Of a stretch of 11,561 bases of DNA, positions 3,001 through 9,000 are shown one piece after another; position 1 is the first letter of the stretch; every line of letters begins with the position of its first letter. Origin of the DNA: a virus. Taxonomy: Duplodnaviria > Heunggongvirae > Uroviricota > Caudoviricetes. Made by a program: the position numbers. The DNA lies in the IMG/VR virus record IMGVR_UViG_2695420422_000005; one strand, 5' to 3'.

Positions 3001-6000
3001 AATCCTCCGGCTCCGAGACGGTGCTGGGTACGGAAGTGAAATATGACACGCCGATCACCCGGACCATCACGTCGGCAAACATCGACCGTCTGCGCCTGAC
3101 CTTCGGTGTGCAGGCACTGGTGGAAACCACCTCAAAGGGTGACCGGAATCCGTCGGAAGTCCGCCTGCTGGTTCAGATACAGCGTAACGGTGGCTGGGTG
3201 ACGGAAAAAGACATCACCATTAAGGGCAAAACCACCTCGCAGTATCTGGCCTCGGTGGTGGTGGATAACCTGCCGCCGCGCCCGTTTAATATCCGGATGC
3301 GCAGGATGACACCGGACAGCACCACAGACCAGCTGCAGAACAAAACGCTCTGGTCGTCATACACCGAAATCATCGATGTGAAACAGTGCTACCCGAACAC
3401 GGCGCTGGTCGGCGTGCAGGTGGATTCAGAGCAGTTCGGTAACCAGCAGGTGAGTCGCAATTATCATCTTCGCGGGCGCATTCTGCAGGTGCCGTCGAAC
3501 TATAACCCGCAGACGCGGCAATACAGCGGTATCTGGGACGGAACGCTTAAGCCAGCATACAGCAACAACATGGCCTGGTGTCTGTGGGACATGCTCACTC
3601 ATCCGCGCTACGGCATGGGGAAACGTCTTGGTGCGGCAGATGTGGACAAATGGGCGCTGTATGTCATCGGCCAGTACTGCGACCAGTCAGTGACGGACGG
3701 ATTTGGCGGCACGGAGCCGCGCATCACCTGTAACTCTTACCTGACCACACAGCGTAAGGCGTGGGATGTTCTCAGTGATTTCTGCTCGGCGATGCGCTGT
3801 ATGCCGGTATGGAACGGACAGATGCTGACGTTCGTGCAGGACCGACCGTCGGATAAGGTGTGGACCTATAACCGCAGTAATGTGGTGATGCCGGACGATG
3901 GCGCGCCGTTCCGCTACAGCTTCAGCGCCCTGAAGGACCGCCATAATGCCGTTGAGGTGAACTGGATTGACCCAGATAACGGCTGGGAGACGGCGACAGA
4001 GCTTGTGGAGGATACGCAGGCCATTGTCCGTTACGGTCGTAACGTCACGAAGATGGATGCCTTTGGCTGTACCAGCCGGGGGCAGGCACACCGAGCCGGG
4101 CTGTGGCTGATTAAAACGGAACTGCTGGAAACGCAGACCGTGGACTTCAGCGTGGGCGCAGAAGGGCTTCGCCATGTACCGGGTGATGTCATTGAAATCT
4201 GCGATGATGATTATGCCGGTATNNNNNNNNNNNNNNNNNNNNNNNNNNNNNNNNNNNNNNNNNNNNNNNNCGGGGGCAGGCACACCGCGCCGGGCTGTGG
4301 CTGATTAAAACGGAACTGCTGGAGACGCAGACCGTGGATTTCAGCGTGGGTGCTGAAGGGCTTCGTCATGTACCGGGCGATGTCATTGAAATCTGCGATG
4401 ATGACTATGCCGGTATCCGCACCGGCGGGCGCGTGCTGGCGGTGAACAGCCAGACCCGGACGCTGACGCTCGACCGTGAAATCACGCTGCCATCCTCCGG
4501 CACCACGCTGATAAGCCTGGTTGACGGGCAGGGGAATCCGGTCAGCGTGGAGGTCCAGTCCGTCACCGACGGCGTGAAGGTGAAAGTGAGCCGGGTTCCT
4601 GACGGCGTTGCAGAATACAGCGTGTGGGGGCTGAAGCTGCCGACGCTGCGCCAGCGTCTGTTCCGCTGCGTGAGTATCCGTGAGAACGACGACGGCACGT
4701 ATGCCATCACCGCCGTGCAGCATGTGCCGGAAAAAGAAGCCATCGTGGATAACGGGGCGCACTTTGACGGCGACCAGAGCGGCACGGTGAATGGTGTCAC
4801 GCCGCCAGCGGTGCAGCACCTGACTGCCGAAGTCACCGCAGACAGCGGGGAATATCAGGTGCTGGCGCGCTGGGACACGCCGAAGGTGGTGAAGGGCGTG
4901 AGCTTCCTGCTCCGTCTGACCGTAACAGCGGATGACGGCAGTGAGCGGCTGGTCAGCACGGCCCGGACGACGGAAACCACTTACCGCTTCACACAACTGG
5001 CGCTGGGGAACTACAGGCTGACAGTCCGGGCAGTAAATGCGTGGGGGCAGCAGGGCGATCCGGCGTCGGTATCGTTCCGGATTGCCGCACCGGCAGCGCT
5101 GTCGCGGATTGAGCTGACGCCGGGCTATTTTCAGATAACCGCCACGCCGCATCTTGCGGTTTATGATCCGACGGTACAGTTTGAGTTCTGGTTCTCGGAA
5201 AAGCGGATTGCGGATATCAGGCAGGTTGAAACCACAGCACGCTATCTTGGCACGGCGCTGTACTGGATAGCCGCCAGTATCAATATCAAACCGGGCCATG
5301 ATTATTACTTTTATATCCGCAGTGTGAACACCGTTGGCAAATCGGCATTCGTGGAGGCTGTTGGTCAGCCGAGTGATGATGCATCCGGTTATCTGGATTT
5401 TTTCAAAGGCGAGATAGGGAAAACCCATCTGGCTCAGGAGCTGTGGACGCAGATTGATAACGGTCAGCTTGCGCCTGACCTGGCTGAAATCAGGACGTCC
5501 ATTACGGATGTCAGCAATGAAATCACGCAGACCGTCAATAAGAAACTGGAAGACCAGAGTGCGGCAATTCAGCAGATACAGAAGGTTCAGGTTGATACAA
5601 ATAATAACCTGAACAGCATGTGGGCTGTGAAGCTGCAGCAGATGCAGGACGGACGCCTTTATATCGCGGGTATTGGTGCCGGTATTGAGAACACCCCTGA
5701 CGGCATGCAGAGTCAGGTGCTGCTGGCGGCGGACAGGATTGCGATGGTTAATCCTGCGAATGGCAACACAAAACCGATGTTTGTTGGTCAGGGCGATCAG
5801 ATATTCATGAACGACGTGTTCCTGAAACGCCTGACGGCCCCCACCATTACCAGCGGTGGAAATCCATCGGCATTTTCCCTGACTCCGGACGGAAAGCTGA
5901 CCGCTAAAAATGCGGATATCAGTGGCAGTGTGAATGCGAACGCCGGGACGCTCAACAATGTCACGGTAAATGAAAACTGTACGATTAAGGGCATGCTGGA

Positions 6001-9000
6001 GGCGACTCAGGTCAGAGGTGACTTCGTTAAAGCTGTATCCAAATCATTTCCGAAACAGGCTGGTACGTGGGGTAACACGGAAACACCAAACGGGACGGTT
6101 ACAGTCACCATAAGCGATGATCATAACTTTGACCGCCAGATTATTATTCCGCCCATTATTTTTAACGGTATAGCGTATGACGATCCGGGGAGCGGAAATA
6201 ACCCAGGAGGCACGCGATACACGGGTTATGGTTTTGAAGTTCGCAAAAACGGCGTATTAATCGCATCCAGAGAAACTAAAGGTGCCATTCCCGGTAGTTA
6301 CAGTGCAGTTATTGATATGCCTAGTGGTGGTGGTAGCGTCACTCTGGAGTTTAAGATTTTCCAGAAAGGCAATCAGGGGGCAGGCAATATCACCGACTGT
6401 ACGGTGATTGTGACCAAAAAAGCGGCTTCCGGCATCAGTATTCGTTGAAATATTTATAACCCCAATAAATGGCGTCAGGAATGACGCCTTTTTTATTGCA
6501 GAAAAGCGAGAGGTAATTATGCGTAAAGTTTGTGCAGCCATTTTGTCCGCAGCCATTTGCCTGGCCGTATCCGGTGCGCCTGCATGGGCGTCTGAACATC
6601 AGTCCACGCTGAGCGCGGGGTATCTTCATGCCCGGACCAACGTTCCCGGCAGTGATGATCTGAACGGGATTAACGTGAAATACCGTTATGAGTTTACGGA
6701 TACGCTGGGGCTGGTGACGTCATTCAGCTATGCAGGAGACAAGAATCGCCAGCTGACCCGTTACAGCGATACCCGCTGGCATGAAGATTCCGTGCGTAAC
6801 CGCTGGTTCAGCGTGATGGCGGGGCCGTCTGTGCGCGTGAATGAATGGTTCAGCGCGTATGCGATGGCGGGTGTGGCTTACAGCCGTGTGTCGACTTTTT
6901 CCGGGGATTATATCCGCGTAACTGACAATAAGGGGAAAACGCACGATGTGCTGACCGGAAGTGATGACGGTCGCCACAGCAACACGTCTCTGGCGCACTG
7001 ACGGTTTCATCGTGGGTGTCGGTTATAAATTCTGATTAGCCAGGTAACACAGTGTTATGACAGCCCGCCGGTTCAGGCGGGCTTTTTTGTGGGGTGAATA
7101 TGGCAGTAAAGATTTCAGGTGTACTGAAAGACGGCACAGGAAAACCGGTACAGAACTGCACAATCCAGCTGAAAGCAAAACGTAACAGCACCACGGTGGT
7201 GGTGAACACGCTGGCCTCAGAAAATCCGGATGAAGCCGGGCGTTACAGCATGGACGTTGAGTACGGTCAGTACAGCGTTATTCTGTTGGTGGAAGGATTC
7301 CCGCCGTCACATGCCGGGACCATCACCGTGTATGAAGATTCCCGACCCGGTACGCTGAATGATTTTCTCGGTGCCATGACGGAGGATGATGCCCGTCCGG
7401 AGGCACTGCGCCGTTTTGAGCTGATGGTGGAAGAGGTGGCGCGTAACGCGTCCGCGGTGGCACAGAACACGGCAGCCGCGAAGAAATCAGCCAGCGATGC
7501 CAGCACATCAGCCCGTGAGGCGGCAACCCATGCGACTGATGCTGCAGATTCAGCACGTGCAGCCAGCACGTCAGCCGGACAGGCCGCTTCGTCGGCTCAG
7601 TCAGCGTCTTCCAGCGCAGGAACGGCATCAACAAAGGCCACTGAAGCCTCAAAAAGTGCTGCCGCTGCAGAGTCCTCAAAAAGCGCGGCGGCTACCAGTG
7701 CCGGTGCGGCGAAAACGTTAGAAACGAATGCGGCAGCGTCACAACAATCAGCAGCCACTTCTGCATCCACCGCGACCACGAAAGCGTCAGAAGCTGCCAC
7801 CTCAGCCCGGGATGCGTCGGCTTCAAAAGAGGCGGCAAAATCATCAGAAACGAACGCATCATCAAGCGCCAGTAGCGCAGCTTCCTCGGCGACGGCGGCT
7901 GCAAATTCTGCGAAGGCGGCCAAAACGTCCGAGACGAACGCCAGGTCTTCTGAAACGGCAGCGGGACAGAGTGCCTCAGCTGCGGCAGGCTCAAAAACAG
8001 CGGCTGCGTCGTCTGCCAGCGCCGCGTCAACAAGTGCCGGGCAGGCCTCAGCCAGTGCCACCGCCGCCGGAAAATCGGCAGAAAGCGCCGCATCATCCGC
8101 TTCAACAGCCACAACGAAGGCTGGCGAAGCCACTGAGCAGGCCACGGCAGCAGCGAGGTCAGCTTCCGCAGCGAAGACATCCGAAACGAACGCGAAAGCG
8201 TCGGAAACCCGTGCAGAATCCTCAAAAACGGCTGCCGCATCGTCCGCCAGTTCGGCGGCGTCATCGGCATCATCGGCGTCTGCTTCAAAAGATGAGGCGA
8301 CCAGACAGGCGTCAGCAGCGAAGGGCAGCGCCACGACGGCATCCACGAAGGCGACAGAGGCTGCTGGTAGTGCGACGGCAGCAGCTCAGAGCAAAAGTAC
8401 GGCGGAATCTGCAGCAACGCGCGCTGAGACAGCGGCAAAACGGGCAGAGGATATTGCATCCGCCGTGGCGCTTGAGGATGCGAGCACGACGAAAAAGGGG
8501 ATAGTACAGCTCAGTAGTGCGACTAACAGCACTTCCGAGTCACTGGCGGCAACACCAAAAGCCGTTAAGGCCGCGTATGACCTGGCTAACGGGAAATACA
8601 CCGCACAGGATGCAACGACAGCACAGAAAGGGATAATCCAGCTAAGCAGCGCGACCAACAGCACGTCTGAAACGCTGGCGGCAACGCCAAAGGCAGTAAA
8701 AGCAGCCAATGACAATGCTGAGAAACGTCTGCAGAAAGATCAGAACGGTGCGGATATCCCTGGCAAAGACACCTTTACGAAAAATATTGGTGCCTGCCGT
8801 GCCTTCGGTGGGTCAGTAAGCACAACAACAGGAAACTGGACGACTGCACAGTTTATCGAGTGGCTGGATTCTCAGGGAGCATTTAACCATCCATACTGGA
8901 TGTGCAAGGGTTCCTGGTCTTATGGCAATAATAAAATCATTACTGATACTGGCTGCGGTAATATTCATCTCGCCGGAGCTGTCATTGAAGTAATGGGGAT

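Follow-up and report, generated by a model that had tools for sequence, protein, structure and literature searches.

Which part of a lambda-type tail fibre has been exchanged in this prophage, and what would its tip bind? The question is raised by an 11,561-nucleotide (nt) stretch of IMG/VR virus record IMGVR_UViG_2695420422_000005 (Caudoviricetes), hereafter the window, and in particular by its J gene, which encodes the central tail fibre protein. A preliminary description of this DNA noted that J becomes AT-richer from about position 5400, took 5400-6448 to be a compositionally distinct and possibly exchanged receptor-binding module, and proposed that this J may recognise an outer-membrane receptor other than LamB, the receptor of lambda. 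The analysis described here indicates that 5400-6448 very probably encodes the far end of a central tail fibre of lambda type, assembled from known, common modules, with a tip of phage 434 type whose receptor would be OmpC rather than LamB.

Results

The distal part of J is a mosaic of known modules

All six J domains were detected above the Pfam cut-offs, in the order FNIII-A_GpJ, Phage-tail_3, Ig_J, Ig_J_second, Phage_Tail_Tip and Ig_GpJ_C (coordinates in Table 1). The structural names used here for the J domains are those of PMC11101478, and amino acid (aa) numbers refer to a J reading frame reconstructed across a gap, as described below. The alignment to the solved lambda gpJ chains extends to the last residue (whole-sequence E 3.7e-154 to 8xcj/8xck), and a second matched stretch aligns to 9wca (E 4e-96). 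Relative to lambda gpJ (NP_040600; 8XCJ, 8XCK, 8IYK), residues 1-805 are 95-100% identical, and the order of domains, the gene neighbourhood, the central fibre and the place of a step in GC content are shared. In contrast, the alpha-helical shaft is only 38.5% and the receptor-binding domain 37.9% identical to those of lambda, whose tip is not AT-rich (GC 0.544) and which binds LamB.

Divergence from lambda begins at about 5400, with a change in identity at 5416, and the sequence beyond this point falls into three segments. The shaft is a long variant, 28 aa longer than that of lambda, and is 97.0% identical (131/135) to the shaft of phage 21 (OL657228) and 99.3% to that of phage Ayreon, versus 38.5% to lambda and 39.3% to 434; at the nucleotide level, identity to phage 21 is 95-100% over 5377-5796. 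The central straight fibre is conserved, with 87-92% identity to lambda, 434, 21, 2B8, Ayreon and WGPS6 and 72% to BP-4795. The receptor-binding domain is 94.5% identical (156/165) to that of phage 434 (OL657226, UMO75286.1; the classical h434 host-range allele), 99.4% to that of 2B8 and 97.0% to those of Ayreon and Stx2a_WGPS6, versus 41.7% to phage 21 and, with several insertions and deletions, 37.9% to lambda. Over 5977-6448, 434 and lambda h434 share 83-100% nucleotide identity with the window in each 60-nt segment, and the joints between the modules are equally sharp when identity is plotted in such 60-nt windows. The region 5400-6448 is thus not the single distinct module that it was first taken for, as it holds a phage-21-type shaft, a conserved fibre and a 434-type tip, each with its own nearest relatives. 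The view that this C-terminus differs from that of lambda J holds for its last 165 residues, which do not belong to the lambda sequence type (high identity to lambda J residues ~973-1132).

Comparison with individual phages shows how these modules are combined. The J of phage 434 has a lambda-like body and the same GC change point as the window and a receptor-binding domain of similarly low GC content (0.479), but its shaft is of the short lambda type, 39% identical to that of the window and 28 aa shorter. Between 434 and the present allele, the receptor-binding domains differ by V1006I, E1008Q, S1032A, Q1036K, A1037V, N1047D, I1136V, Q1138H and G1143R. Conversely, phage 21 has the long shaft but a tip of another type, and it uses LamB (PMC11336670). 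The full combination of lambda-like body, long shaft and 434-type tip is found in Ayreon, cdtI, phi458, ev099, mEp332 and many E. coli prophages such as that of MB56. These relatives are 95-98% identical to the window over 4271-6448 at the nucleotide level (95-96% for phi458, ev099, cdtI, Ayreon and mEp332) and show point differences only.

This allele is already known and common, and its combination of modules, also known, ranks with the most frequent in E. coli. Of 5426 complete E. coli genomes, 2092 have the receptor-binding domain (5951-6448) and 3549 have the long shaft. Tip types are discrete: 74 phage records carry a receptor-binding domain with at least 90% aa identity to that of the window, 169 fall below 60% and none lies in between. 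The 74 records include 434, 2B8, Evi, Ayreon and several Stx1a-, Stx2a- and Stx2c-converting phages.

J is interrupted by a probable scaffold join between two prophages

J, at 2757-6448, is not one continuous gene in the window: a run of 48 N lies within it, the sequences that flank the run are imperfect duplicates and the reading frame changes. The flanks, 4077-4222 and 4271-4416, are copies of one J segment (138/146 identical, 8 mismatches). The reading frame differs across the N run, and an open reading frame (ORF) finder splits J into 2757-4304 and 4334-6448; no single uninterrupted frame of the ~1130-1170 codons expected for a lambda-type J is present in the window. When the N run and one 146-nt copy are removed, a J of 3498 nt (1165 codons) without internal stop is obtained, equal in length to the J of E. 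coli MB56 and phage Ayreon; GPEC657, the third relative with this J annotated, has the same length.

Ten IMG/VR contigs have a distinctive deletion in the lom-like gene in common with the window. The gap-free contigs L013, L014 and L020 are 99.7-99.9% identical to the window right of the gap and 94.9% identical left of it at the nucleotide level. The J of L014 is intact at 3498 nt and differs from the reconstructed J at 86 nucleotides, 73 of them within the first 1466 nt. A further contig, L016, is 99.88% identical to the right part of the window. In L016, the left-hand J piece of the window (3360-4222, 99.8%) runs on into a different C-terminal half, the receptor-binding domain of which is only 42% identical to that of the window. 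Because identity is 99.7-99.9% on the right side and 94.9% on the left, and because the left-hand piece occurs in L016 with another receptor-binding domain, 1-4222 and 4271-11561 almost certainly derive from the tail modules of two different prophages that were joined by the scaffolder. Assembly, rather than mutation, appears to have produced the break in J.

At 7274-7520 of L016, the J C-terminal half is followed, after one N, by an ORF fragment of unrelated sequence (MLSREDFYMIKQMRQQGAYIVDIATQIGCSERTV...), which may belong to an insertion-sequence transposase. The break in L016 lies within ~20 nt of that in the window, and this proximity suggests a recurrent point of assembly failure in J.

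The GC step is a family trait at a domain boundary

The difference in composition reported for J is real. GC content is 0.498 (522/1049) over 5400-6448 and 0.593 (1481/2496) over 2757-5300 (chi-square 27.2, p = 1.9e-7), and the two stretches that had been compared by eye, 6100-6200 and 4860-4960, have values of 0.426 and 0.663, respectively. The difference does not, however, begin at 5400. A likelihood test, with 500 permutations as the null, places the change point at J nt 2175, or 5125 in the window. Tested on its own, the right-hand contig (4271-6448) has a GC content of 0.640 before 5125 and 0.497 after it (log-likelihood ratio 21.5 versus a permutation maximum of 7.1), in agreement with the expectation that a calculated profile would not be uniform. 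GC at third codon positions (GC3) drops from 0.735 to 0.544 at the same point. GC3 takes a second, weaker step near J nt 3063 (window ~6013), from 0.598 to 0.434; this step is reached by 18 of the 500 permutations and coincides with the receptor-binding domain.

As the window is a join, with its right side 99.7-99.9% identical to L013, L014 and L020 and its left side 94.9%, and as the same left-hand J piece belongs in L016 to a J whose receptor-binding domain differs, the step might be thought an artefact of comparing two prophages within a chimeric scaffold. This explanation is hardly credible, since position 5125 sits 850 nt inside the right-hand contig and the step is significant there alone. 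The join was also considered directly as the cause of the step and was ruled out: the uninterrupted J of L014 has the same change point, at J nt 2175. The J of phage 434 has it as well, and strongly (GC 0.595 to 0.501), as does, more weakly, that of lambda (0.593 to 0.532; log-likelihood ratio 6.0 versus a null maximum of 7.0). Because lambda, 434 and L014 share this change point, the GC step is a trait of the J family and is not particular to this phage.

The step lies at the junction of two Ig/FNIII domains, for which the Pfam limits are 5092 (end of Ig_J) and 5102 (start of Ig_J_second). In Stx2a_WGPS6, the body of J is a different one, and the nucleotide identity of this J to the window leaps from 0.664 to 0.944 at 5106. 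Based on these Pfam limits and this leap, the step coincides with a domain boundary that doubles as a natural recombination joint. In the laboratory hybrid lambda h434, the crossover from lambda to 434 sequence maps to the window-equivalent positions 5065-5083, and the hybrid is 434-like thereafter. The GC change point at 5125, the Pfam boundary at 5092/5102 and the WGPS6 joint at 5106 all fall within ~35 nt.

The onset of the step is surrounded by conserved protein sequence, with aa 716-805 being 95.6% identical to lambda J. A shift that begins at ~5125 in a stretch nearly identical to lambda, and that lambda, 434 and others share, cannot serve as the mark of an exchanged receptor-binding domain, as had been proposed. 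The sole compositional difference from lambda is in the last 500 nt: the receptor-binding domain has GC and GC3 values of 0.471 and 0.467 in the window and 0.479 and 0.491 in 434, versus 0.544 and 0.613 in lambda.

Constraint at the level of the protein, arising from a coiled shaft and a beta-rich tip and unrelated to any separate origin or exchange, was considered as another source of the AT-richer end. GC at second codon positions (GC2) is 0.356 in the shaft versus 0.453 in the body, and amino acid content accounts for much of the GC drop in the shaft; moreover, the step is conserved in lambda, 434 and the present J. As a full explanation, constraint of this kind is nevertheless improbable. 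GC3, which is mostly synonymous, drops too, at the change point and on to 0.467 in the receptor-binding domain, whereas the lambda receptor-binding domain has the same fold yet a GC3 of 0.613, which points to a GC3 difference beyond amino acid content. In addition, the change point is just 19 nt from the natural recombination joint.

The tip is of phage 434 type and most likely recognises OmpC

When the J of lambda is replaced by the 434 gene, the phage uses OmpC, the receptor used by 434 (reviewed in PMC3509688 and PMC11101478). Since the receptor-binding domain of the window is 37.9% identical to that of lambda, a receptor other than LamB is likely, and since the same domain is 94.5% identical to that of 434, OmpC would most likely be the receptor of this J allele. 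The earlier proposal of a different outer-membrane receptor is therefore supported in one respect, as a tip of 434 rather than lambda type makes a receptor other than LamB likely, and not in another, as the compositional step is not the marker of the swap.

Two lines of published work describe how such a tip may act and be exchanged. In lambda, loops of the trimeric Ig-like domain enter the porin trimer, and a signal passed through the fibre and the shaft opens the tail (PMC11101478). Brodel et al. 2024 grafted natural gpJ C-termini onto lambda J at residue 964 and thereby retargeted lambda to OmpC (PMC11338833). This graft site corresponds to the conserved stretch directly before the receptor-binding domain, and the grafts of the C-termini A8 and 1A2 thus establish experimentally that the C-terminal segment is an exchangeable cassette (PMC11338833). 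A8 and 1A2 were considered as possible matches for the domain in the window and were rejected: its peptide and DNA words are absent from the supplements of PMC11338833, and the printed 1A2 is of another type. A8 (PDB 9WCA/9WCB) aligns, in 9WCA, as a phage-21-like type.

Over its last ~440 codons, J is a distal fibre unit of lower GC content, in which the second FNIII domain is followed by the alpha-helical shaft, the central straight fibre and, at the end, the receptor-binding domain. The start of this unit (~5106-5125) is the place of the GC step. As lambda, 434 and other J genes share the step, it probably marks an exchange boundary that is old within the family, rather than something that happened recently in this phage. 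Within the unit, the long phage 21 variant of the shaft is paired with the phage 434 variant of the receptor-binding domain. If the tip works like that of lambda gpJ, its trimeric Ig-like domain would place the distal loops inside a porin trimer of the outer membrane, and the binding signal would travel through fibre and shaft until the tail tip opens.

Several observations weigh against this assignment. Part of the GC drop stems from amino acid composition and not from origin, as indicated by the shaft GC2 of 0.356. The present allele differs from that of 434 at 9 of the 165 receptor-binding domain residues. Phage 21 uses LamB, and one mutation adds the use of OmpC (PMC11336670), although its receptor-binding domain is merely ~40% identical to that of lambda; receptor use can thus not simply be read from the sequence type. 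The natural gpJ C-termini A8 and 1A2, which are of other sequence types, bind OmpC as well, and the OmpC variants that they accept differ between the two (PMC11338833). Finally, the h434 hybrid has lom and the side tail fibre gene from 434 as well, so sequence alone cannot assign its host range to the receptor-binding domain.

Two alternatives for the receptor follow from such observations. The first, that the divergent tip still binds LamB as that of lambda does, draws on phage 21, which does so with a tip ~40% identical to lambda's (PMC11336670). It is very improbable for a tip that is 37.9% identical to that of lambda and 94.5% identical to that of 434, for which the reported receptor is OmpC and not LamB (PMC3509688, PMC11101478). 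The second is that the tip is of 434 type but has a receptor range unlike that of 434, limited to certain OmpC variants or directed at another porin such as OmpF, by virtue of the nine substitutions or the long shaft. Nine differences in 165 tip residues are available for such a change, in phage 21 and in lambda one to a few mutations in J shift the receptor that is used (PMC11336670), and natural gpJ tips vary in the OmpC variants that they accept (PMC11338833). However, the identity to 434 is 94.5% across the whole domain, the same variants recur in 2B8, Ayreon and WGPS6, and the very wide occurrence of the allele in E. coli fits a ubiquitous receptor such as OmpC. A range unlike that of 434 is accordingly considered unlikely, and OmpC remains the most likely receptor.

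In the searchable literature, no published receptor was found for the phages that share this J (mEp332, the PhiR series, Ayreon, cdtI, phi458 and ev099); PMC3442831 states just that phages differ in receptor specificity, and PMC13190303 gives LamB and ManYZ for lambda only.

A 32-residue peptide of lambda J, residues 902-933, is the reported trigger of the prophage-encoded abortive-infection nuclease HepS (PMC13043305). Its counterpart in the window (5738-5833, J aa 930-961) is identical at 25 of 32 residues and keeps the key phenylalanine, F924 in lambda, as F952 (5804-5806). Based on this conservation, the J described here is predicted to trigger HepS.

Gene neighbourhood

The ORF layout is that of a lambdoid tail module in the order M-L-K-I-J-lom-stf-tfa, the same as in the annotations of lambda, MB56 and 434. 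Close relatives of the whole module, at ~95% identity, are found in hundreds of complete E. coli chromosomes.

Table 1 Features of the window, in order of position. Empty cells: no entry.
Feature	Position	Strand	Details
M	372-701		
L	711-1409		
K	end at 2157		
I	2055-2696		
J	2757-6448	+	split by N run
J N-terminal 488 codons and 2 bases, hub domains	2757-4222	+	left-hand contig; ORF 2757-4304 enters N run
FNIII-A_GpJ and Phage-tail_3 (Pfam)	within 2757-4222	+	95-100% aa identity to lambda J
J body, aa 1-805	to 5365		95-100% identical to lambda per 40-aa window; GC 0.590
Run of 48 N within J	4223-4270		scaffold junction
J C-terminal 725 codons and stop	4271-6448	+	right-hand contig; in frame from 4271; mechanical ORF from 4334
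First Ig-like/FNIII domain (Pfam Ig_J)	4778-5092	+	residues 149-253 of ORF from 4334
Second Ig-like/FNIII domain (Pfam Ig_J_second)	5102-5404	+	change point 5125 and joint 5106 at its start
Alpha-helical shaft, long variant, phage 21 type, aa 806-940	5366-5770	+	GC 0.514, GC2 0.356
Central straight fibre, aa 941-1000 (Pfam Phage_Tail_Tip)	5771-5950	+	GC 0.539
Receptor-binding domain, phage 434 type, aa 1001-1165	5951-6445	+	Pfam Ig_GpJ_C 6035-6442
Terminator-like hairpin and T run	6471-6494	+	directly past J
lom-like gene	6519-7001		Pfam Lom
Side tail fibre gene	7094-10183		Pfam tail fibre N-terminal domain
Tail fibre assembly gene	10183-10764		Pfam tail fibre assembly protein

The terminator-like hairpin past J occupies the same place as an annotated terminator in phages Ayreon and 434. 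Its stem reads GGCGTC...GACGCC in the window and GGCACC...GGTGCC in MB56 and Ayreon, such that the paired changes preserve the stem. The lom-like gene lacks 83 nt that are present in MB56 and Ayreon; the deletion lies between two CTGGCG repeats (junction near 6989-6995) and causes a frameshift, with a product of 160 rather than 199 aa. The 40-mer across this junction matches 10 IMG/VR contigs and has no match in the genome contigs collection. The side tail fibre gene shows a very strong excess of A over T (AT skew 0.32-0.45 across ~7500-8850) and, like J, an intragenic drop in composition, with GC falling from ~0.60-0.64 to 0.47 at 8700-9150.

Past the tail fibre assembly gene, 10765-11561 is AT-rich (GC 0.32) and contains no ORF of at least 60 aa; tRNA genes are absent from the whole window, this region included. 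In E. coli GPEC657, the matching stretch is bordered by the tail fibre assembly gene on one side and by a truncated ydfJ on the other. Given this position of its counterpart, 10765-11561 is probably close to the end of the prophage.

Implications

For the use of this record, 2757-6448 must not be treated as one gene, as it is almost certainly a scaffold join of two prophages, and the GC step at the FNIII/FNIII boundary of J provides no evidence for a recent swap. The central fibre of the prophage is assigned, by its sequence, to the 434 host-range type and is probably OmpC-dependent, an assignment of little consequence beyond annotation. It is improbable that the receptor range of this fibre differs from that of 434, whether narrowed to particular OmpC variants or including a further porin, on account of the nine substitutions or of a 434-type tip being mounted on a long shaft of phage 21 type. 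If it did, the very common 434-type tips of E. coli prophages would comprise several different specificities instead of sharing one.

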